This document shows positions 16,081 through 26,128 of a stretch of 64,000 nt of DNA, piece after piece. Both the position numbers and the translations under genes were made by a program. The stretch is from Flavobacteriales bacterium. Its GTDB lineage: Bacteria; Bacteroidota; Bacteroidia; Flavobacteriales_F; PHOS-HE28. Numbering within the stretch: the first letter of the stretch is position 1; the number at the start of each line of letters is the position of its first letter. The notes under the pieces were generated by a model. The model was not told where the DNA came from. It made no database searches and was given only the letters and a program-made list of their open reading frames with translations. Location of the stretch: NCBI GenBank assembly GCA_016787985.1, contig JAEUTC010000043.1:17145-81144 (forward strand), given 5' to 3'.

Positions 16081-16827
16081 TCAGTGGAAGAACTGCATCA
16101 CCTTGCTCCAGAGCTTCCGGGTCACCAGCAACGGCGGGGCTTGTAGGCCGTTCAATCCCCAAGAGGCGCGCACTTCACGGTTGGCCTTCAGGATGTGTTT
16201 CACGCTACCGTTGCTCATGCCACCCAACCGGAAACGCACCAGCACCTCGCGCAAGTGGACCGTGCGGATCTCGTGTTTGTAGAGCATACGCAGGAGGATC
16301 TCGTAGTCCGCAGCGATACGCAGGTCGGTGTTGAAATGCCCGAAGCGGTCGTATGCGCTTTTCCGGATGAAAGTGCCCACATGCGGTGGCATCCAACCAC
16401 GGCGGAAGTTGTCGCGGTGGTAGGTCCCACTGAGCCACGTCCGGTGCACTTTGTGGATGTCATGCTCGTCCACCATGATGATGTCCCCGTAAACGGCATC
16501 GGCATGGCTCCGCTGGAACGCATCCACCACCTGGGCGATCACCTGGGGGGTCATCAGCAGGTCACCGGCGTTCACGAAACCGATCACCTCGCCGGTGGCC
16601 GCGCGCAGCCCCTTGTTCATGGCATCGTAGATCCCCTTGTCCGGCTCGCTCACATAGTGCGCCAGCCGGTCTCGGTGGCGCTCCACCACCTGTTGGGTGC
16701 CGTCGGTGCTGGCCCCGTCGATCACGATCACCTCGATGTCGGTGTGCGTTTGCGCGAACACGCTTTCCAACGAAGCGCCGATAACAGCGGCCGCGTTACG
16801 ACATACGGTGATGAGGGTGACTTTCAT
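16081..16827 (-). CDS. family 2 glycosyltransferase
   Basis: 248 aa; VIVIDGASTDGT, the DxD region (YGDIIMVDEHD) and overall GT-A fold signature. Confidence 0.85.
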   Translation of the reverse strand: MKVTLITVCRNAAAVIGASLESVFAQTHTDIEVIVIDGASTDGTQQVVERHRDRLAHYVSEPDKGIYDAMNKGLRAATGEVIGFVNAGDLLMTPQVIAQVVDAFQRSHADAVYGDIIMVDEHDIHKVHRTWLSGTYHRDNFRRGWMPPHVGTFIRKSAYDRFGHFNTDLRIAADYEILLRMLYKHEIRTVHLREVLVRFRLGGMSNGSVKHILKANREVRASWGLNGLQAPPLLVTRKLWSKVMQFFH

Positions 16828-16944
16828 GGATGCTTATCCAGCTCCTACCGTGCGAAGATGAGAAGTCTGCCGAGAAGCCTGAATGCGAACCTCCCACCCC
16901 AACCCGCGAACCAAGACCAACCTGGTGCTGTTCTGGACTACGCC

Positions 16945-17571
16945 ATGGAAAAGCTTCGGATCCTCCAATGTATTCTCTTGCTAGCGGTAACTTCCTCCTC
17001 GGCTCAAGACGTTGAGCATCCATTCCGTATGGGCAGCAACGTCGAGATCTCCGCCGCGCAGCTCCTGATCGCGGGAAGTAACCAATACGCGGACAACATC
17101 CTCGACCGCCAACGCGGCGACGCCACCTTTATCGGTGCCAGCTACCTGCTCGGCGACACCACCGACCAGGGCCGTGGCATCGGGCGTTTCGCCGTAGGGA
17201 TCGGCGCAGGAGCACTGCTATGGGAAGGTATCACCCTGATGCCTGTATTTGGTCAGGTCAACTGGCACCCCTTCGTCCGCCGAGCCCCATGGGCCAGCGT
17301 GCACCTCAGCCGCTTGGGCATCGCCATGCGCTTCGGCGGCATCCTCGGCGCGTGGAAACCCACCACCCGTGGCCAACTCGCCGGGCACACGTACACCGAC
17401 CTGGCCTTCAAGTACCCCGCCCACCTCGGTCGCTTCAACCTGAGCCTCGATGCAGGCCTCGGAATGATCCTTCTACGCGGTCCCTACACCATCGCTGAAG
17501 AAGGCTTGGTGGAGGACAGACGCTTCGCCGAGTTCATCTACCCACGGTTGGGTCTGAGCGTGGGTTTCTGA
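16945..17571 (+). CDS. secreted/outer-membrane beta-barrel-like protein (hypothetical)
   Basis: Signal peptide MEKLRILQCILLLAVTSSSAQ; Gly/aromatic-rich; terminates in ...GLSVGF (C-terminal Phe typical of OM barrels). The 5' part of the track ORF 16195..17571 is antisense to the GT2 gene. Confidence 0.55.
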   Translation: MEKLRILQCILLLAVTSSSAQDVEHPFRMGSNVEISAAQLLIAGSNQYADNILDRQRGDATFIGASYLLGDTTDQGRGIGRFAVGIGAGALLWEGITLMPVFGQVNWHPFVRRAPWASVHLSRLGIAMRFGGILGAWKPTTRGQLAGHTYTDLAFKYPAHLGRFNLSLDAGLGMILLRGPYTIAEEGLVEDRRFAEFIYPRLGLSVGF

Positions 17572-17593
17572 GTCGATCACGTTGACCACCCGG

Positions 17594-17932
17594 TCAACGC
17601 GCACTGCGGGCCCTGGCGTTGTAGGACAGGCAAATGCGCATGTAATACTGAAAGTCGTGATCGCGCTGGAGACCTTCAGCGTGGATGTAGCAATAGCCCT
17701 TGTAGGTCTTGCCCTTCATCAGCATGGTGGCGTAGCCCGCGCGCTCAGCCAGCACTTCCTGCAAATCCGGGTCGAAGCGCAGCATCAGGCTATCACCGCG
17801 AACGCATACACAGGTCTTCCCATTGACCATGAAATTGAGCACCCCGAACATCACCTTTTCTTCTACGGAGATGCCAAGGGTGGCGGCCAGGTGCTCACGC
17901 ACCCGGTCCGCCAGCGCTACATCGTACGGCAT
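17594..17932 (-). CDS. TfoX N-terminal domain family protein
   Basis: 112 aa from MPYDVALADRVREHLAATLG...EKVMFGVLNFMVNGKTCVCV; typical TfoX/Sxy N-terminal domain pattern. Confidence 0.7.
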   Translation of the reverse strand: MPYDVALADRVREHLAATLGISVEEKVMFGVLNFMVNGKTCVCVRGDSLMLRFDPDLQEVLAERAGYATMLMKGKTYKGYCYIHAEGLQRDHDFQYYMRICLSYNARARSAR

Positions 17933-17936
17933 CGTT

Positions 17937-18311
17937 TCACCGGCGGGAATGGAGTCCCACGGTGTTCCCTTCCGTATCCTTGAAGATGGAGACGAAGCCG
18001 AACTCGCCGATGGCCATCTTCGGCCGCAGCACTTCGCCTCCTGCACGTACGATGCGCGCCTCCTCGGCCTCACAATCCGCTGTTTCGAAATACACCACCG
18101 TGGCGTTGGATCCGTGTCGCAGTTCAGATGTCTCCACCAAAGCCCCCGAGATGTTCCCACTAGTGGGGTCGAAGGGGAACAAGGCCTGCCTGCCCCATTG
18201 TGCGGGCATGTCCGTGAGTTCGATCTGGAATACGGTTGCATAGAACGCTTTGGCGCGCTCCAGGTCGGCGACGGGGATGTCGAACCAACCTACAGGGTTC
18301 TGGTTTTTCAT
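17937..18311 (-). CDS. VOC/glyoxalase family protein
   Basis: 124 aa from MKNQNPVGWFDIPVADLERAKAFYATVF...; glyoxalase-fold signature; start codon confirmed at 18309-18311 (cat on the plus strand). Confidence 0.75.
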   Translation of the reverse strand: MKNQNPVGWFDIPVADLERAKAFYATVFQIELTDMPAQWGRQALFPFDPTSGNISGALVETSELRHGSNATVVYFETADCEAEEARIVRAGGEVLRPKMAIGEFGFVSIFKDTEGNTVGLHSRR

Positions 18312-18440
18312 GTGATGGATCTTCGGTATCGCACCTTGGGTGCCGGGTGCAAAAGTGGATCCACACGGATCGGCGGAATTGTAAAAATGGGACAGTGATC
18401 GGCTGTGATCGATGCGCCTGTTCACGCGCACGGATCAGGC

Positions 18441-19295
18441 TCAAGGCCGATGCACCACGGTGTGCTGGGACATGCGGGCATACTCCATTCCATCGAAGAT
18501 CAACGACATCCGCAAGGCATCGCCGCGAGAGCCCCCCGGGGTCAGGCCCGTGAACGCCTTGAAATCCTTGATGAAGTGTGCCTGGTCGAAAAAGGAGCTC
18601 TCGTAAGCGAGGCCCGTCAGGTCGTTCACCTCATCGAAGAGCATGCGGCGCAGGGCGGACTGGATGCGTACGGTACGCGAATACTGTTTCGGCGATAGGC
18701 CGATGAGCGTGGAGAACTTACGGGCCAGGTGGCGGCGATGCACATGGCTGCGCCGTGACAGTTCATCCACGGTGAGGCTCCCGTTCGTCGTGCGGATGTC
18801 CAAGAGAGTGCGCGCGATCACCGCATCAGCCTGTGGCCGCGTGGCCAAGCGATGGAACAAGAAGCCCTCCACCAGGTCGATCCGTTCTGCGGTGGTGCAC
18901 GCATCCAGGACCCGGCGCCCGATCACATCCCCCTCGAAACCGAACAACCCCTGCAGGGGCACCGCCGTGTTCTCGAACGCCTTCAACGGACCGCCCCAGA
19001 ACGGCTGGAAACCGCCGGGGTGGAAGCGCACCACGAACGACCCCGTGCGCCCCAGCGGACGCACCACGAACGGCTTCGTCAATTGACCGATCAGGAAGCA
19101 GCGCGGCAGATCCACCCACACGCCGGGCCGGGGCTGGTGCAGGTAGGGATCGCCGTAGTGGAAGATCAGCTTCATGGTGCCATCGGGCACGATGGTGTTC
19201 ATCACCGGCGTGTCGTGCGGTTCGCCCACGAGGTTCCAATGGCACATCACGTGCGCATCCAACCCGCGGGAAACTGGGAAGATCTCTGAACGCAT
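18441..19295 (-). CDS. AraC family transcriptional regulator
   Basis: 284 aa; C-terminal AraC-type HTH (RRSHVHRRHLARKFSTLIGLSPKQYSRTVRIQSALRRM...FFDQAHFIKDFKAFTGLTP). Confidence 0.8.
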   Translation of the reverse strand: MRSEIFPVSRGLDAHVMCHWNLVGEPHDTPVMNTIVPDGTMKLIFHYGDPYLHQPRPGVWVDLPRCFLIGQLTKPFVVRPLGRTGSFVVRFHPGGFQPFWGGPLKAFENTAVPLQGLFGFEGDVIGRRVLDACTTAERIDLVEGFLFHRLATRPQADAVIARTLLDIRTTNGSLTVDELSRRSHVHRRHLARKFSTLIGLSPKQYSRTVRIQSALRRMLFDEVNDLTGLAYESSFFDQAHFIKDFKAFTGLTPGGSRGDALRMSLIFDGMEYARMSQHTVVHRP

Positions 19296-19468
19296 GATAC
19301 TCCGTTGGGACCTCCGGTATTCAGGGGGCTAACTATCCGCCACACCGACTTCGGGCAACGCCACGGCAAAACTACATGCCAACGAAGGCTGGCCCTACAA
19401 GCGATGATGCCATGAAGTCCAGCGGCACGAACCAGCTGAGCGACCAAAGGCTGACACAGCGATCCCAA

Positions 19469-20101
19469 CTAGAAGTTGAATCCCACATGCAAACCCGGTT
19501 CGCCGAGGATGAACTTGGACCACTTGTCGTCCAGCTGCTTGAAGCCATCCGGTAACCGTGTGTGGTAGGCCCGGTGCGTGATGGCGATGGACGGTTGGAA
19601 GAAGAAACGGTCCTTGAAGAGCTTGATGTGATAGCCGGCCCGGTAGGTGTTGAAGACCTGGAACCCGCCATCGATCTTGTTCCCTTGGTCGTTCACGAAG
19701 TCCTGCAAGGTGGGCATCACGTTCAGCTCGGCATAGAGGCCCTTCCAAAAGAAGCGTTGATAGGAAAGCGAAAGGCCATACTCGCGCACATACCCTGGGA
19801 ATTTCTCTTCCGGCTTTTCGTAGGCATTGTTGAGGAACGGATGTATACCATTGGGCCAGGCATACTTCCAGGTCTTGGGTTCCACGGTGATCACATCCCG
19901 ACCCGTGAGGCGATAGCCGATGTTGAGTTGAAAGAAATCCGGTGGATTGTCGGTGGGCGCCAGGTTACCCACCAGCACGAAAAGGCTGGTTCCCACGAAC
20001 CAGCGCTTGTAGGTGCTGTCCGTTCTCGAGTATTGTGCTTGGAGGTTGAACGAGCTGGTCATCACCAGCGCAAGAATCACGAGTCCGATGTTCTTCTTCA
20101 T
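19469..20101 (-). CDS. outer-membrane beta-barrel protein, paralogue A
   Basis: About 210 aa from MKKNIGLVILALVMTSSFNLQAQ (signal peptide); ends ...GLHVGFNF; roughly 45% identical to the downstream paralogue. Confidence 0.7.
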   Translation of the reverse strand: MKKNIGLVILALVMTSSFNLQAQYSRTDSTYKRWFVGTSLFVLVGNLAPTDNPPDFFQLNIGYRLTGRDVITVEPKTWKYAWPNGIHPFLNNAYEKPEEKFPGYVREYGLSLSYQRFFWKGLYAELNVMPTLQDFVNDQGNKIDGGFQVFNTYRAGYHIKLFKDRFFFQPSIAITHRAYHTRLPDGFKQLDDKWSKFILGEPGLHVGFNF

Positions 20102-20161
20102 CACTTCTTCTGTTGTTTTCAACGACGGCGCAAAACAAGACCGGCGATGGGCCTCCACTCG

Positions 20162-20175
20162 TTCACTTTGGTGAA
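20162..20175. promoter_or_regulatory. 14-bp palindrome TTCACTTTGGTGAA about 65 bp upstream of OMP paralogue A (candidate Crp/Fnr-family or AraC operator)
   Basis: Inverted repeat TTCAC-N4-GTGAA embedded in a roughly 60-bp block conserved with the equivalent position upstream of paralogue B. Confidence 0.4.
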
Positions 20176-20317
20176 GGAATGCGCCACACGAACGCCTTTT
20201 TCCGGATGCTCCCGAGCCATGCAGGCATCGCCAGCACGCTCGTGCTACGCAGGACCGCATGGAAAATGAACCGACCCGTTGGTCGAGGATGACAGCCTGT
20301 CTGCCGCCCCTGGTCCT

Positions 20318-20935
20318 CTAGAAATTGAACCCGAAGTGAAGGCCTGGCTGGATGAAGTAGTTGGGCCATCTACTTTCCACGGCCTTGAACACTTCAGGAA
20401 CCTTCGTCCGTACCGGCCAATAGCTACAGCCCATGGCTGGCTCGAAGAAGAACCGGTTCTCCCAGAACCTGAACTGATAACCCAGGTGGAAGTTCAGGTA
20501 CAAGGTGTACCCATTGCCGATCTTCTTTTTGTCCTGATCCATGTATTTCTCGAAGGCGTTCAAGGCATAGATGGAAGTATAGACCCCTTTCCACCAGAAG
20601 CGCTGGTAGCCCACGGTTGGCGCCAGTATGCGCGCATGGCCGGGGTAGTTCAGGCCGGGTGCATCGAATGAGGGACCGAATGGAATACCGATCGGCCACG
20701 CGTAGATGGATCGTTTGAACTCGATCGAGATCACATCCTTCGGGGTTAGCCGATAGCCCACGTTCAACTGGACGTACTCAGGTTTGTTGACCCGATCCAG
20801 ATTCCCGAGCAAGTACAGTGAACTCCCAACGTACCACCGCCGATAGGTGCTGTCCTGCAGGGCAGTTGCAGCGCGGAGTTGGAGCGTGCTGGCCATCAAG
20901 ATCACAAAACCAATGAGAGTGCTTTTCTTCTGCAT
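20318..20935 (-). CDS. outer-membrane beta-barrel protein, paralogue B
   Basis: 205 aa; signal peptide MQKKSTLIGFVILMASTLQLRAA; ends ...GLHFGFNF; collinear similarity with paralogue A throughout. Confidence 0.7.
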   Translation of the reverse strand: MQKKSTLIGFVILMASTLQLRAATALQDSTYRRWYVGSSLYLLGNLDRVNKPEYVQLNVGYRLTPKDVISIEFKRSIYAWPIGIPFGPSFDAPGLNYPGHARILAPTVGYQRFWWKGVYTSIYALNAFEKYMDQDKKKIGNGYTLYLNFHLGYQFRFWENRFFFEPAMGCSYWPVRTKVPEVFKAVESRWPNYFIQPGLHFGFNF

Positions 20936-20992
20936 GCTACCCTACGTGTTGATCGAGGCCGCAAAAGAAGACCGGCGGGTCGCCCCACCGCG

Positions 20993-21006
20993 TTCACTTA
21001 AGTGAA
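20993..21006. promoter_or_regulatory. perfect 14-bp palindrome TTCACTTAAGTGAA upstream of OMP paralogue B
   Basis: Exact TTCAC-TTAA-GTGAA palindrome; the flanking block aagaccggcg...cgttcactt..gtgaaggaatgc is shared with the paralogue A upstream region. Confidence 0.45.
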
Positions 21007-21013
21007 GGAATGC

Positions 21014-21595
21014 TCAGCCCCTCTCCTTCTCGATGATCCGTGCCCTGAGCCGGCTCAACGATTGGGGGGTGATGCCCAGGAAGCTCGCCAGCTGGTGCTG
21101 TGGCACACGCTGAACGAGGTCCGGACGTGTGCGCAATAGGTTCAAGTACCGCTGTTCGGGTGATGAGGTCTTGAACGCATCGAACTCCACGCGCTCCTTC
21201 GCCAGTAGCTCTTCGGAAAGCACCTTACACAGCGTCTCGAAGCGCGGGAAACGGCTATTCATGTCCACCTCCAGGTCCGCGTCCGAAACGGTCAGGATGG
21301 TGTCTTCCACACAACTGATGGAATACTCGGAGGGCGTTCGGCTCACCACGCACGGTGGTGTCAAGGCCTCCAGCTCGCTATAGAAGGAGGTGGTCCGCTC
21401 CTCGCCATCCACGATGTAGTAGGTGCGGATGCAGCCTTCCAATACGAAGTAGCTGTTCCGCGATCGTTCTCCGGCGTTGAGCAGTATGGTCCCTTTCTTC
21501 ACCGTTCGGAAGATGTCCAAGGAACCGACCACGCTCTTCTCCTCCTCCGTCAAGGTCATGTACTTGGCGATGAAGGCGAAGAGTTTGTTCTGCAT
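21014..21595 (-). CDS. Crp/Fnr family transcriptional regulator
   Basis: 193 aa; N-terminal cNMP-binding-like beta-roll (GTILLNAGERSRNSYFVLEGCIRTYY) and C-terminal HTH (QHQLASFLGITPQSLSRLRARI). Confidence 0.85.
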   Translation of the reverse strand: MQNKLFAFIAKYMTLTEEEKSVVGSLDIFRTVKKGTILLNAGERSRNSYFVLEGCIRTYYIVDGEERTTSFYSELEALTPPCVVSRTPSEYSISCVEDTILTVSDADLEVDMNSRFPRFETLCKVLSEELLAKERVEFDAFKTSSPEQRYLNLLRTRPDLVQRVPQHQLASFLGITPQSLSRLRARIIEKERG

Positions 21596-21769
21596 GGATC
21601 ACCGGTCCAGTCTTCGACGGTCATGCGCTACACCCCGCTGATCTTCTTGCGCCACAACCGAACAGACAGCAAAGGTACCGACTCAACACGAGGCGTGCTA
21701 AACGTGGGCTACGGACCTAAGGACCGCAAATCCTGGAACACCTGGCCCCAGGAGAAGGCCGGCACCCGA

Positions 21770-23149
21770 TCACTCCTTCAACTTCACACGCACCTTCTCG
21801 CCATCAGCAGTGATCCGGACCAACGCGTAGTTGCTCACGTTCGCGGGAGAGCCCCAATGCCTCACATCCATCGTCGGCGTAGCGGTGCCCGAACCATCGG
21901 GGTACACGGTAACCGTGTAGCCCCCTGTGGGGGTTTGGGTGGTGTGGGTGTACTTGGTCGCCACGAATTGCACGATCACATGGTATTCACCGGGCTTCAG
22001 GTGCTGGAACGAGAAGCCTCCCCGGTCATCGGTGACCTCGGTGAGCAGGGTCTGTTCCTTCACTTCCAACGGCAGCGGGAAACCTGCGCAGCCGTTGAGC
22101 ACCTGGCCAGCCACGATGGTCGGGGGGAATTTGGTGCGGACGGCGGTGTTGAAGGCCAGCCACTCCTTGAAGTACGGCGTTTGGGGAATGAGCATCACGA
22201 TGCTGCCCTTGGGCGCAAGGATCCTCTTGGGCCGATCCAGCAAGGCCCCGGGCATGCCTTCGTCCGTGGTGTACGCCTGGCCTTCGATGCTGGAATTGCC
22301 CGCGCTGATCATCGCCCGGGCCGCGGCCGCATCGAACGGGGTCACGATGGGGTTGCGGTCGGCTTGCGTATCCATGTAGGTCACGCCGAAGGAGCCGGGG
22401 TCCTTGCTCACGAACAGGATCCTCCGCGACTCCTTCTCGATCACGATCTTGTACGTGTTCGTCGCGGTCAACGTATTACGGAGTTCCACCACGAAGACGT
22501 CCACCACCTCGCCGATGGCACACGACGGCATCTTCATCTCCTGCAAGCTCTCGATCTCCCAGCGCATCACCTTCGTGCGGTAGCCGTCATCGAAGGTCAC
22601 CTGCGGGATCAGGGCCCGGTAGCCCGCCTTCAGGGGCAATAGGCTGACCAGGAACTCCAACGAACTCCCCAGGAAGAACGGCTCTTCGAGGGGTTCATCG
22701 AAATGCTCCTTCTCCCCTGTCCTGTACACCTCGATATCGCCCTTCAATGTCTTGCCGCAGACCAGGTCGTACGAGAAGCCCACCGTCTCGGCCTGCGCAC
22801 GGATGGGCCCGAAGGTGCGGGCGTCCAACACGAGTTTCCGTTTCACCACATCCGCACCCTGCTCCGTATACCGCTCTTCGATCACGATCTCGCCCGCCGT
22901 GCGGCTGATGGTCACGAACCGTTGATCCGGCTTCTGGGGTTCTCCGGAAGCGAATAGACCGCCGGTCGGTCGTTCCCACACGAAACTGCCGGTGTGCAAC
23001 AGCGCCGTGTTGAGGCTGGCACTACCGGGCAGCACGATATCGGGCTTTTGCGCCACCACACGGGTGGGAGCCATGAGCAGTACCGCCATTGCGGTCGAGA
23101 GGGCGAAGGAGACGCGGAACACCATTCCAGCTGATAGCATGTTGATCAT
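21770..23149 (-). CDS. secreted hypothetical protein with a C-terminal carboxypeptidase-regulatory-like beta-sandwich
   Basis: 459 aa; signal peptide (AVLLMAPTRVVAQ); the C-terminal GGFSFQHLKPGEYHVIVQFV segment is typical of CarbopepD_reg-like domains. Confidence 0.55.
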   Translation of the reverse strand: MINMLSAGMVFRVSFALSTAMAVLLMAPTRVVAQKPDIVLPGSASLNTALLHTGSFVWERPTGGLFASGEPQKPDQRFVTISRTAGEIVIEERYTEQGADVVKRKLVLDARTFGPIRAQAETVGFSYDLVCGKTLKGDIEVYRTGEKEHFDEPLEEPFFLGSSLEFLVSLLPLKAGYRALIPQVTFDDGYRTKVMRWEIESLQEMKMPSCAIGEVVDVFVVELRNTLTATNTYKIVIEKESRRILFVSKDPGSFGVTYMDTQADRNPIVTPFDAAAARAMISAGNSSIEGQAYTTDEGMPGALLDRPKRILAPKGSIVMLIPQTPYFKEWLAFNTAVRTKFPPTIVAGQVLNGCAGFPLPLEVKEQTLLTEVTDDRGGFSFQHLKPGEYHVIVQFVATKYTHTTQTPTGGYTVTVYPDGSGTATPTMDVRHWGSPANVSNYALVRITADGEKVRVKLKE

Positions 23150-23548
23150 CGTTCATCGATCCAACGGCACACCACCACGGATAAAGGCGGAAACGCCCCT
23201 AAAAGAACCGTGATACGCGTGGGATCATCGCGGCAAGCGGGAGAAGCGCATCAAGACCGGGAGAGGTCGATCCTTCTTCACCTGAACACCTTTGCCGAGC
23301 GGTGCCAAAAGTATGCCAGTGATCCTATCGCCTTTGGGGAACAGGGCTTCCGCGTTGAACCGCCGGTCACAAAGCCGGGACGCGTTCGGCATAGCATGCC
23401 CCGCCGTTGGCGCACAGTACCTGAGTTGAGCGAAGCTGTTCAGCGCCACTCGAAAAGCGTGACAGGATGTTCGAAGAAACCTACTAACCAAAGAAAGACT
23501 GCTCAGACCTTGAAGCTGTTCTAGGACGTGTCACTCGGGCAATCCTAC

Positions 23549-23938
23549 TCATTCTAATCGTGACTTCCATGCACAAGCCCTAGCCCCCGATCTTAAAACG
23601 CGCATTGGCGATGAGCCGTAGATGAGCAGCGGCACCAATACGACTATGCTTAGGATGGTACATTTAGCCAGCTTTTCGCCTGTGCTGTAGGTGGCGCCTT
23701 TGGTCCACAGTAGAACTACGGATGCCAGCCAGAACACCCCGGCACTGCCGCCGGCAGCGAGCAGGTGACCCAAGCCATCCAGGTAGTCATGTGCCAGGGC
23801 TAGTGAAAGACCGAAAGCAAGGAGCGTTCCGCCGAGAAAGGAAGCCACAATGCCCACGAGCACCCCATTGCTCATGGTGGACCGGTGGAGCCACCGGAGA
23901 CAAAGAACCAGCACGGCAACGTTCAGGAGAACGGACAT
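23549..23938 (-). CDS. hypothetical integral membrane protein
   Basis: 129-aa ORF with 3-4 predicted transmembrane helices; no motif recognised. Confidence 0.4.
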   Translation of the reverse strand: MSVLLNVAVLVLCLRWLHRSTMSNGVLVGIVASFLGGTLLAFGLSLALAHDYLDGLGHLLAAGGSAGVFWLASVVLLWTKGATYSTGEKLAKCTILSIVVLVPLLIYGSSPMRVLRSGARACAWKSRLE

Positions 23939-24023
23939 CCGCGTTGTTCAAGGTTGGTTCAGCAAGCTCTTCGTAGCCGCTTCGATGAAGCGGGTCTAGT
24001 TCGTTCGCAGCCGTGGTTCGCGG

Positions 24024-24218
24024 TCAGCCCTCCGTCTTCTCCTCCTTCTTCCCCCGCAGGATCAAGAACAGCGAGAGCCCAAAGCCGAACATATAGACCA
24101 AGGCGAGGGGCAGGTGCCGGAAGCGGAGGGTCTCGAAGTCGAACTCCCTGAAGAGGGAGATGCCGATGATGAGGGTGATGACCTGCATCGGGAAGGACGC
24201 GGCGAGGAGCTTCTTCAT
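24024..24218 (-). CDS. small membrane protein (hypothetical)
   Basis: 64-aa ORF with two hydrophobic helices; lies between direct repeat R1 and the upstream gene. Confidence 0.3.
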   Translation of the reverse strand: MKKLLAASFPMQVITLIIGISLFREFDFETLRFRHLPLALVYMFGFGLSLFLILRGKKEEKTEG

Positions 24219-24242
24219 GGTGGTGAGACTTAAGCGGTGGGG

Positions 24243-24283
24243 TCCATCACCCGTTCGCGCACGGGCTGGGCGAGGTTGTCTTC
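24243..24283. repeat. direct repeat R1: partial copy of the 3' end of the acetyltransferase gene
   Basis: tccatcacccgttcgcgcacgggctgggcgaggttgtcttc matches 24820-24860 (about 36/40 nt); on the minus strand it encodes ...NLAQPVRERVMDPTA*. Confidence 0.8.
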
Positions 24284-24758
24284 AATTATCGTCGGTACAA
24301 CTTCGGCACCGCTTCATGCTGATGATCTCTCCGTTCCTGAACTCAGCCCTGAAGCCGATGCTTCTCTTCCAAAGCAGTCGTTCGTATGTCTTCGCCGCTA
24401 CAAGAACGAAGTCGTATTTGGTGGTGTCAAGTGGAAAATCAATGACTTGGAACTCCACAATGCCAACAGACCCTTTCAAAAATGCCCAACGCTCATAAGC
24501 CCTGGTGCTTTGCGCGATGAATTCGTCAAACTGAGGAATGTAGCGCGCATAGTCCTGCACGAATGCATTTAAACGGTCAAGTTGTGCCTGGTCAACGTTC
24601 TTCTTCGGCGCCCTGAAATAGACGTCACAAGAGATCGTTTGATGAGGGAATGGCCAAGTGAAATGATAGTTCTCCCTACCAGACCAACTTCGAACGAATG
24701 AGAGGTCATTCCTAACCTGCTCAAGGTTCATAAGTGGAGGTGAGAATTGCTCCATCAC
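24282..24758 (-). CDS. hypothetical protein encoded on a low-GC insert
   Basis: 158-aa ORF with visibly lower G+C (about 48% by eye) than its flanks, bounded by repeats R1/R2; no recognisable motif. Confidence 0.5.
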   Translation of the reverse strand: MMEQFSPPLMNLEQVRNDLSFVRSWSGRENYHFTWPFPHQTISCDVYFRAPKKNVDQAQLDRLNAFVQDYARYIPQFDEFIAQSTRAYERWAFLKGSVGIVEFQVIDFPLDTTKYDFVLVAAKTYERLLWKRSIGFRAEFRNGEIISMKRCRSCTDDN

Positions 24759-24815
24759 AGTTCGCTAGATGGGACTAAAGTCTGGTTACCTAGTTGGAGG
24801 GTCAATACTCGTTGG

Positions 24816-25391
24816 TCATTCCATCACCCGCTCGCGCACGGGCTGGGCGGGGTTGCCTTGGTAGATGGTGTAGGGCTCCAGGTCCTTGGTGGCCACGCTT
24901 CCGGCGGCCAACACACTGTGGCTCTTGAGGGTGACGCCCAGGGTGACGATGGCCCCCGCTCCCACCCAGCTGCCATCTTCCAACACCACCGGCTTGGTGT
25001 AGGTGGGGTAATCCACCTTCTTGTAATCGTGGCTACCCTGGATGATCATGGCGCCCTGGCTGATCACCACGTTGTTGCCGATGGTGAGGGTATCGAGGTT
25101 ATCCAACCAGGCACGCTGACCGATCCAGCTGTGGTGGCCGATGCTGAGCTTCCACGGGAACTTGATGTTCACGCTGGGGTGGATGACCACACCTTGCCCC
25201 ACGTGCGCGCCGAACAGCCGCAGCAGACCGGGTTTCGGCGAGCGGAACGGGAAGGCCGGGTTCTGGAAGATGAGGGCGTTGACGAAGAACCACAAGGTGC
25301 GTTTGAACACACCGGCGCCGGGGTGGAAGGTCTTCGAGTTATCGAAGCGGCTGAGGTCTACCTGGGGGCGTGCGGTCATGGTTTTGGCCAT
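24816..25391 (-). CDS. hexapeptide-repeat (LbH) acetyltransferase, WcaF-like
   Basis: 191 aa; left-handed beta-helix hexapeptide repeats (VVIHPSVNIKF, IGNNVVISQGAMII, VGAGAIVTLGVTL); typical of polysaccharide O-acetyltransferases. Confidence 0.8.
   Translation of the reverse strand: MAKTMTARPQVDLSRFDNSKTFHPGAGVFKRTLWFFVNALIFQNPAFPFRSPKPGLLRLFGAHVGQGVVIHPSVNIKFPWKLSIGHHSWIGQRAWLDNLDTLTIGNNVVISQGAMIIQGSHDYKKVDYPTYTKPVVLEDGSWVGAGAIVTLGVTLKSHSVLAAGSVATKDLEPYTIYQGNPAQPVRERVME
24820..24860. repeat. direct repeat R2: the native 3' end of the acetyltransferase gene, partner of R1
   Basis: tccatcacccgctcgcgcacgggctgggcggggttgccttg, encoding ...NPAQPVRERVME*. Confidence 0.8.
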
Positions 25392-25639
25392 CCTTCCAAG
25401 AGTATCACATTCACATCACCATCCAAGACCCTGAAGTCCTTATCGGCCGTTAGCAGTGGCACATCCTTGCGCAACGCCGTTGCTGCGATGATGGCGTCAA
25501 CGACCGCCATGTTGTGCTTCCTTCGAATGCCGATGGCCAGGTCTGGCAACCCTGGTCCATATTCAAGGGAACTAGTGCCGACCACGACGCATAGCTTTCT
25601 GTTGTACCACGGGATCACCTTCAAAAGGGATCGTCCCAA
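25376..25639 (-). pseudogene. PIN-domain (VapC-like) toxin remnant: C-terminal half only
   Basis: 87-aa ORF; the segment AVVDAIIAATALRKDVPLLTADKDFRVLDGDVNVILL matches the C-terminal half of PIN domains. No intact N-terminal half or antitoxin is visible; roughly 490 bp of apparently non-coding sequence follows. Confidence 0.45.
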
Positions 25640-26128
25640 CGAAGCGCGAGACGCTGGCCCCCTTGCGCTGTTTCCGGGCCAACCGCTTCAATGCAGCGGT
25701 AAGTTGGCCCTTCAGCAGTTCTCCTTCGCGCAGTACTATCATGATCGTGATCGGTAGTCTTCAAAGATACCGGTTCCTTGACATCCAAGCCAGCAAGGAG
25801 GGCCTCACCGCGTTGCGTCGGATGCGCGGTATCACACAAGGACTGGACCTGCGCCTTGCCACAACAGGCTGCGGAACTGTGTGTCGGGATCTGCAACACA
25901 CTGTTGTTAGCCACTACCAGAAGAAAGAGCGCGAAGCGCCAGGCAAAGCTCGCCATGCGAGCGATTCCTCTGCGTTCTCTGCGCCTCTGCGTGAGGAAGC
26001 GAGGGACGCTCTCAAGCCCAACCCATCCATGCCCAAGAACTTGCATCGCTTTTGCCGGTCGAAAGGCACTGCGCGGCCCTCTCACACTTCCTTTGCCGCA
26101 AAGCGCGCACGTTATCGCCAACGAACAG

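Follow-up and report, generated by a model that had tools for sequence, protein, structure and literature searches.

Polymorphic-toxin loci of the Rhs and contact-dependent inhibition (CDI) types carry displaced "orphan" gene ends, C-terminal tips and immunity genes, and insertions made by template switching, of the fork stalling and template switching or microhomology-mediated break-induced replication (FoSTeS/MMBIR) type, are normally unique events. Long target duplications of 8–514 bp are produced by the insertion sequences (IS) IS1634 and IS1549, both of which encode transposases (PMC2266710), and integron cassettes can insert outside integrons at attG sites, according to a statement in PMC12614218 that cites Loot et al. 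2024. Described here is a small foreign gene unit that resembles each of these systems in part. It lies in a 64,000-nucleotide stretch of a Flavobacteriales bacterium (the window; GenBank assembly GCA_016787985.1, contig JAEUTC010000043.1, positions 17,145 to 81,144), in the last codons of a gene for a WcaF-family polysaccharide O-acetyltransferase (AT). The unit is an old, still polymorphic insertion of a single promoterless-looking gene that duplicated 36–40 bp of its target. It provides a clean natural case of one foreign gene added to a conserved operon with neither neighbour damaged, in which one can see the site without the insert, the site with it in two lineages, and the donor gene family.

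The host gene occupies 24816–25391 on the minus strand, as do all features of the locus given below, and its product matches NCBIfam model NF007797 (E 2e-63; 213.3 bits against a curated cut-off of 192) and contains Hexapep domains. One direct repeat of 40 nt marks its 3' end. The upstream copy, R2 (24820–24859), supplies the last codons of the working AT gene, and the downstream copy, R1 (24243–24282), is now non-coding; the two are identical at 37 of 40 positions and lie 577 nt apart. A degenerate 36-nt pattern with up to three mismatches matched R1 and R2 only in the window and none of 100 shuffles, and a window-wide scan revealed no second repeat of this kind. Between the copies lie 537 bp of unique DNA (24283–24819) with a GC content of 47.9%, as against 59.7% and 62.9% in the flanks; in 200-nt windows the GC fraction is 0.465–0.485 between R1 and R2 and 0.60–0.65 on either side. 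Repeat and low-GC segment together are real and well beyond chance. The inserted DNA consists of a fast-evolving 5' leader of ~61–64 nt (24759–24819), which begins ATGA, followed by the cargo open reading frame (ORF; 24282–24758), which encodes 158 aa from a GTG or 157 aa from an ATG at 24755. The three last bases of the insert are the base preceding the cargo stop codon and the first two bases of that stop, whose final base, 24282, opens R1. No inverted repeats were found at the insert ends, and no promoter-like or terminator-like site was found in the leader region. A role for R1 itself as a terminator or attenuator was rejected, as no terminator-like or promoter-like site is present there and the region 24225–24300 shows no significant fold on either strand (z ~0.07–0.08).

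Comparison with relatives defines the insertion. Five relatives carry the site empty: L010 (a Logan contig), L017 (the GTDB representative JAEUTB010000103.1, a Flavobacteriales metagenome-assembled genome) and L018–L020 (JGI metagenomes). When each was aligned to the window by blastn, the alignment broke at 24820, the end of R2, and restarted at 24282, the start of R1; L010, for instance, is 97.3% identical to the window over 28496–24820 (3.7 kb) and its alignment picks up again at 24282. In a junction alignment of nine sequences, each empty site reads as the left part of R2 running straight into the right part of R1. The AT gene of the five relatives contains a single repeat copy and ends ..MDP*, ..MDTTA*, ..MDPTA* or ..MDATA*; in L017–L020 the one copy is followed by ..MD(P/T/A)TA* and then by a small membrane protein gene, which begins 8–11 nt past the AT stop in empty-site relatives. 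One relative, L001 (a Logan contig, 88–94% identical to the window in the flanks), is occupied, with the insert at the identical position, a repeat of 38/40 and a GC dip like that of the window.

A preliminary description of the window, made from its letters alone, had proposed a low-GC insertion of foreign DNA at the AT 3' end, flanked by direct repeats of about 90% identity that duplicate the gene terminus. The self-comparison and the single repeat copy at uninterrupted sites, with breakpoints exactly at the repeat edges, bear this out, and the repeat is not a common one within the window. The size of 575 bp given there needs correction, since the unique segment is 537 bp and the repeat period 577. 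The same description took R2 as the native 3' end; here the roles are reversed. R1 and the 13-nt tail that follows it (24230–24242, the displaced native end of AT), read in frame, encode ..MDPTA* in the frame and position found in the empty sites. This is the ancestral ending, because most listed AT homologues end as R1 and its tail encode: in a cluster at 90% identity with 15 listed members (14 full length), 10 of the 13 full-length members other than that of the window end ..M(D/E)(P/T/A)(T/S)A, two further members have native-type endings that are shorter, and ..VME* or ..MME* is found only in the window and L001 proteins.

The AT of the window ends ..NPAQPVRERVME*, with a TGA stop (24816–24818) donated by the insert, and its new Glu-stop ending comes from ATGA, the first four bases of the insert. 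R2 and this ATGA keep AT complete, with ..DPTA* replaced by ..E*, and R1 with the old ending preserves the native sequence ahead of the gene for a 64-aa two-helix membrane protein (TM64; 24024–24218). AT with its new ending is very likely still functional, because C-termini beyond ..RERV differ across the wider AT family and because its ratio of nonsynonymous to synonymous substitution (dN/dS) between the window and L001 is 0.08. The cargo TGA and the ATG of the 64/66-aa membrane gene, 66 nt further downstream, share one reading frame (window 24216–24284, minus; L001 4235–4303), and no stop intervenes in either sequence, such that read-through would give a fusion protein; this arrangement is probably due to chance (~1 in 6), though it is kept in both lineages.

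The age of the insertion can be gauged from the two occupied loci. Between the window and L001, synonymous divergence (dS) is 0.35 for the cargo ORF and 0.24–0.41 for AT, TM64 and the two upstream GT4 glycosyltransferase genes, GT4a and GT4b; insert and flanks have thus co-diverged in two lineages. Since cargo dS matches that of the flanking genes, the insertion is old and predates the split of window and L001. It has not been ameliorated: third-position GC content (GC3) is 0.56 (window) and 0.64 (L001) in the cargo ORF and 0.81–0.95 in the neighbouring genes. The dN/dS of the cargo ORF, 0.31 (0.08–0.27 for the neighbours), indicates that it is under purifying selection. Occupancy does not follow relatedness, as the closest relative of the window, L010 (dS 0.04–0.11), is empty and L001 is nearer to the empty L019 and L020 (93–96%) than to the window (88–94%). 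The simplest readings of this pattern would be repeated loss, in which R1 recombines with R2 and no scar is left, or exchange for an empty allele; the insert may also have spread laterally among lineages at an early stage.

The repeats themselves carry traces of their origin. Comparison of four repeat copies indicates that ancestral R1 and R2 differed at position 4 only, within AAG(G/A)CAAC. This single difference fits a duplication created at insertion: in essence, 36 nt were duplicated without error, and the right-hand joint shows a short, imperfect microhomology. Between the window and L001, 38 of the 40 positions of R1 agree (95%), whereas the gapped alignment of the leader reaches 61% identity; at the synonymous rate, conservation of R1 to this degree has a P of ~1e-3 to 1e-4. 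Such conservation would follow if R2 had converted R1, or if R1 had been exchanged with empty alleles, where the sequence is coding. A diversity-generating retroelement, with R2 as the variable and R1 as the template repeat, was considered and rejected: presence or absence of the insert in relatives explains the repeats, no reverse transcriptase family match is on record in the neighbouring genes, and R1 and R2 show only three mismatches.

The cargo protein is rare. A word-indexed search of 5.8 billion proteins recovered only the cargo itself and its L001 homologue (79% identical), and an exhaustive HMMER search of 1.84 billion representatives returned 32 proteins at E ≤1e-3, nearly all of ~120–165 aa, whose alignment runs from end to end. 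The named ones belong to Flavivirga rizhaonensis, Chryseobacterium lacus and one Flavobacterium species. Judged by these searches, the cargo belongs to a rare family of ~150-aa Flavobacteriales proteins, and a low-GC Flavobacteriales origin would fit. No match was found in Pfam, NCBIfam, PADLOC or PHROGs, the only hints being a PADLOC hit at E 0.03 and DUF6985 at E 0.03 for 3 of 30 members; the family profile searched against PDB sequences gave only DUF4465 at E 0.02 over 55 residues, and tblastn against plasmids gave no match. A first structural model from a two-sequence alignment was unusable, with a predicted local distance difference test score (pLDDT) of 41. AlphaFold2 supplied with the family alignment reached a pLDDT of 92.3 and a predicted template modelling score (pTM) of 0.85, and the predicted fold has strands at the N terminus, one long helix and an antiparallel sheet of four strands. 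Foldseek of this model against PDB gave a best E of 0.06 with a template modelling (TM) score below 0.35, and comparison with BFVD gave nothing significant (best E 0.016). Sequence and fold searches of the cargo ORF showed no nuclease or recombinase similarity, and a PD-(D/E)xK nuclease reading of the conserved D116 and K123 was rejected since the fold gives it no support. A helix packed on a sheet is a shape frequent in inhibitor and immunity proteins, which is not evidence here. The earlier suggestion that the 158-aa ORF, of no recognisable family, could be an orphan gene is upheld by these searches, with one other close homologue among the 5.8 billion proteins and 32 family representatives among the 1.84 billion. 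The immunity-type gene put forward there as the other option would be a guess, as sequence and fold comparisons led to no family. A small new protein family is thereby defined, with purifying selection, a confident model and no PDB or BFVD match.

Several members of this family are cassettes in integron-like arrays of attC sites. In L016, an element of ~250 nt occurs ten times, opening ..CACAAC-AGGTCGGTATATG a few bases past each stop codon and closing CATACCGCCGAAC-GTTRRG; on the bottom strand it folds into a long imperfect hairpin of the attC type (z −3.3, 0/200 shuffles). In L025 (Flavivirga), an attC-type site lies directly 3' of the ORF (z −2.4) and three or four more occur along the array, while L030 has a similar, less significant fold (z −1.7, 8/200 shuffles). 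L015 and L023 show boxes resembling R' and R'', with GTTGTGGTGC 5' of the ORF and GCACAAC 3' of it. The arrays were observed at L016 1–9145, L025 1800–6660 and L030 900–2020, and around the ORF in L015 and L023. Their attC-type sites are unusually long, ~140–250 nt (R'' ..CACAAC, R' GTTGTGG/GTTAGG), their other small ORFs are unrelated (TonB_C, AHSA1, DUF4440, SnoaL), and no integrase is visible in the fetched stretches. Downstream of the window cargo ORF, no attC hairpin (R''-L''...L'-R') was found: R1 starts at the stop codon, and the fold z is 0.07. ACAAC is present at the right junction, but CAAC is also native target sequence, and the left junction contains no GTT. The cargo of the window most likely came from the cassette pool and would have arrived without its attC.

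A parallel case was found at recG. Apart from the L001 copy, the closest homologue of the cargo is P0123, 50% identical, encoded on L021 and L022 directly 3' of recG (RecG_dom3_C, E 1.7e-24) and convergent with a Sua5/TsaC gene. In L021, the end of recG (..KHHLIKEMKDRPNWARVS*) is followed by a 49-nt leader and then by a 155-aa ORF. A 50-nt copy of the recG terminus, identical at 40 of 50 positions and readable as KHHQKKGMKDRPEWARVS*, begins at the last base of the ORF stop. The local-alignment score of this repeat is 27.5, and the maximum in 200 shuffles was 12–13.5. The ORF has a GC content of 42% in flanks of 53–55%. With recG as the other target, it is the target, rather than the element, that supplies the duplicated sequence, and the difference in duplication length, 36–40 nt at AT and ~47–50 nt at recG, is as expected for a process that has no ruler. 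The same test for a duplicated gene terminus was negative in seven other contexts of the family (L013, L015, L016, L023, L025, L026 and L030). ACCAAG stands at the left edge of the duplicated segment in both targets (window 24859–24866, minus, ..CTACCAAGGCAAC..; L021 ~55–70, ..CTGACCAAGCATCA..), and the right edges are alike as well (GGGTGATGGA and GGGCGAGGGT). The common ACCAAG may be a coincidence or a target preference, two cases being only a lead. Just past the displaced recG terminus, L021 690–790 contains a GC-rich palindromic motif (GTCATGCTGACGAAGAGCCTGCCCTGAGCATGTCGAAGGGAAGCATC), which may resemble a dispersed repeat common in Bacteroidota. If the recG case is more than coincidence, cassettes of Flavobacteriales arrays have a second way into chromosomes, and its footprint, a duplicated gene terminus directly past a cargo stop codon, can be searched for.

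The data presented above have led us to favour, with about an even chance of its being right, a recombinase-independent insertion of an attC-less cassette fragment guided by microhomology, with selection keeping the neighbours intact. It is preferred because no integrase, transposase, terminal inverted repeats, attC, GTT-type joint on the left or extra copies were found at this locus. Of the genes on record up to ~8 kb to either side, none has a recombinase-family Pfam match, and several have no match at all. Neither an integrase nor a transposase was recognised among these genes or in the insert, whose sole ORF has no Pfam or NCBIfam match, and no integron integrase was seen in the 64-kb window or its ~8 kb of annotated flanks. 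The unit is single-copy in the window, with only two close homologues in the 5.8 billion proteins. In the proposed course of events, a non-homologous event would have left the chromosome at ..GATGGA and come back in 36 nt upstream at AAG(G/A)CAAC, either by a replication template switch or by fill-in and repair of a staggered break, for which no dedicated recombinase would be needed. The substrate may have been a cassette fragment whose right end coincided with the foot of its attC hairpin; the stop codon at the end of the insert would thereby be accounted for. Selection would then retain only those events that leave both neighbours intact and place the ORF within a transcribed operon. Later, R1 could recombine with R2, or an empty allele take the place of the occupied one, and the insert would be removed without a scar; this would account for its lack in the closest relatives, and such recombination, with R2 or with empty alleles, would also keep the non-coding R1 95% conserved.

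Several points weigh against this model. Two independent insertions from one very rare family are alike in being co-oriented with the host gene, in striking its last codons, in their long duplication and in a right end at the stop codon; illegitimate recombination without guidance would predict less regularity, which points to a specific mechanism or substrate structure. The microhomologies are short (2–3 nt plus CAAC), and the left junction is not reconstructable without the donor sequence. The origin of the window copy in the cassette pool is deduced from its relatives, with no attC remnant at the site (fold z 0.07). R1 could instead be conserved for a function of its own, such as one in expressing the gene downstream of it, and seven loci do not separate repeated loss from early lateral spread.

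The shared features of the two cases would be accounted for by a dedicated, undescribed insertion route that, by means of a trans-acting enzyme or of a property of the unit itself, places attC-less cassette ORFs in the last codons of transcribed genes and duplicates ~36–50 bp, which we consider unlikely, though the regularity of the two cases keeps it in play. The AT and recG insertions agree in a leader of ~50–60 nt, an ORF that ends at the junction, a duplicated terminus and co-orientation; ACCAAG marks the left edge of both duplicated segments, and IS1634 and IS1549 set a precedent for long duplications of variable length (PMC2266710). Set against this are the number of instances, two, the seven other family contexts in which no gene-terminus duplication flanks the ORF, and a single-copy unit with no terminal inverted repeats, conserved end sequences or enzyme candidate. 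The corresponding proposal, that attC-less cassettes of this family, and perhaps further integron-type cassettes deprived of their attC, enter last codons by a specific mechanism that rebuilds the host gene, draws expression from the host operon and leaves repeats that allow scarless excision and re-entry, is doubtful to the same degree; if true, cassette genes would thereby have a new exit from integrons into core operons. At 36 and ~47 nt, the duplications have common lengths of CRISPR repeats in Flavobacteriales, and a ruler-type integrase such as Cas1 is a speculative version of this route against which the 0.5-kb insert length argues.

The patchy occupancy could also reflect homologous integration of the Campbell type, in which a 577-bp circle of insert and one repeat, released from a relative with the insert, recombined with the single repeat of a vacant site, such that the lineage of the window would have acquired the unit from another lineage instead of inheriting it. 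Presence and absence that do not track relatedness speak for such exchange, as do repeats of 36–40 bp, which permit excision and re-entry, and the GAA variant that R1 of the window has in common with the empty L018 and L019. It would, however, account for the spread of the unit and not for the origin of the duplication, the equal dS of cargo ORF and flanks fits vertical descent, and a repeat of 36 bp comes close to the minimum that RecA-dependent recombination requires; we regard it as improbable.

Site-specific integration, the mechanism put forward in the preliminary description, fares somewhat worse. On this account the unit is what is left of an integrative element, a genomic island or cis-mobilisable element, that recombined at an att site in the AT 3' end; R1 would be its attR, R2 its attL, and integrase and most cargo would have been lost later. 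Terminus-containing direct repeats do flank foreign DNA, the empty sites are single-copy, and the host gene is reconstituted, which is the classical signature. However, no integrase or integrase remnant was found in or near the insert, which is a leader and one ORF; its 537 bp have the same boundaries in two lineages separated by a dS of ~0.35, such that decay must have finished before the split; and in the collections scanned no genome shows the pattern more than once. Since the closest relative of the cargo targets recG, the repeat is not a fixed att core borne by the element, and an integrase remnant is thus quite improbable.

Least probable of all is that an integron integrase, IntI, placed a circular cassette into a secondary attG-type site and attC was lost afterwards: family members are flanked by attC, integration of cassettes outside integrons, at attG, is on record (Loot et al. 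2024, cited by PMC12614218), and the right junction ..TGA-AGACAAC resembles the post-stop CACAAC R'' box of the cassette relatives, yet no attC hairpin follows the ORF (fold z 0.07; R1 begins at the stop codon), no G|TT-type joint is seen on the left, the target is duplicated, and CAAC is native to AT (GGCAAC in all empty sites), which may make the resemblance accidental. IntI models with either attC strand were rejected, as none fitted both junctions. To our knowledge, IntI recombination does not duplicate its target.

The operon that received the unit has been rearranged elsewhere. GT4a (28365–27268) and GT4b (27271–26129) are followed by a second, independent insertion between GT4b and AT (25376–26128, minus; L001 2477–3142), an antitoxin-like ORF with a PIN toxin gene. 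In the window it is bracketed by the 7-nt sequence CCATGAC and contains a degraded antitoxin/PIN pair (25742–25376), and in L017–L019 and L011 the second GT4 gene and AT overlap (..GCGCCATGACC..; L017 6830–6845). L001 has an intact PIN gene (128 aa); in the window and L010 this gene has lost ~180 nt, and only the C-terminal 87 codons are left. On the other side of AT, the stretch directly past the 64-aa gene is wholly different among the window, L010 and L001, and nothing convincing was found in a search for direct repeats around this hypervariable segment. In the more distant L011 (AT 91% identical), AT overlaps a GT2 glycosyltransferase gene (window 16828–24242 against L011 6001–7310). The GT2 gene of the window is located at 16081–16827, and ~7.4 kb of unrelated genes separate it from AT: small membrane proteins, DUF3108, a Crp-type regulator, two porin-like paralogues, AraC, a glyoxalase and TfoX_N. 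A remnant of the old AT/GT2 junction in the R1 tail (TAAGTCTCACCACC compared with ATAAGTCTCATCACC in L011) was considered and rejected, as the other empty sites give it no support. The porin-like paralogues are in tandem at 19469–20260 and 20318–20935 (263/210 aa and 205 aa), and the 68-nt segments upstream of them (20946–21013 and 20115–20182), ~76–80% similar, account for the only other medium-length direct repeats nearby.

Set beside described systems, the unit shares some features with each. By the criteria for DDE transposons, IS elements and miniature inverted-repeat transposable elements, a target-site duplication is present, unusually long at 36–40 bp, and inverted repeats, a transposase and multiple copies were not found. 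IS1634 and IS1549 come closer in having long target duplications whose length varies between insertions (here 36–40 and ~47–50 nt); unlike them, the window unit has neither a transposase nor terminal inverted repeats and is single-copy per genome. Integrative and cis-mobilisable elements that insert at the 3' ends of tRNA or protein genes likewise combine low-GC DNA, repeats of the gene terminus, a functional host gene and one-copy empty sites; here, however, there is no integrase, the insert is only 0.54 kb long, and a related unit uses an unrelated target. As in Rhs/CDI loci, a new end and a small gene displace the old end, which is kept downstream as a non-coding remnant with a short conserved stretch in common, but the host is an acetyltransferase, the new tip is one codon and a stop, and no toxin domain is present. 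FoSTeS/MMBIR-type insertions match the flanking duplication of variable length, the imperfect microhomology of 2–8 nt and the lack of an enzyme signature, and differ in that two related ORFs have here met with an equal outcome at gene 3' ends. From integron cassettes the insert departs in having no attC, no clear GTT/AAC joint and no nearby IntI and in its 36–40-bp target duplication; it is like them in being a small, apparently promoterless single-ORF unit, set in sense orientation behind a transcribed gene, with attC-flanked kin.

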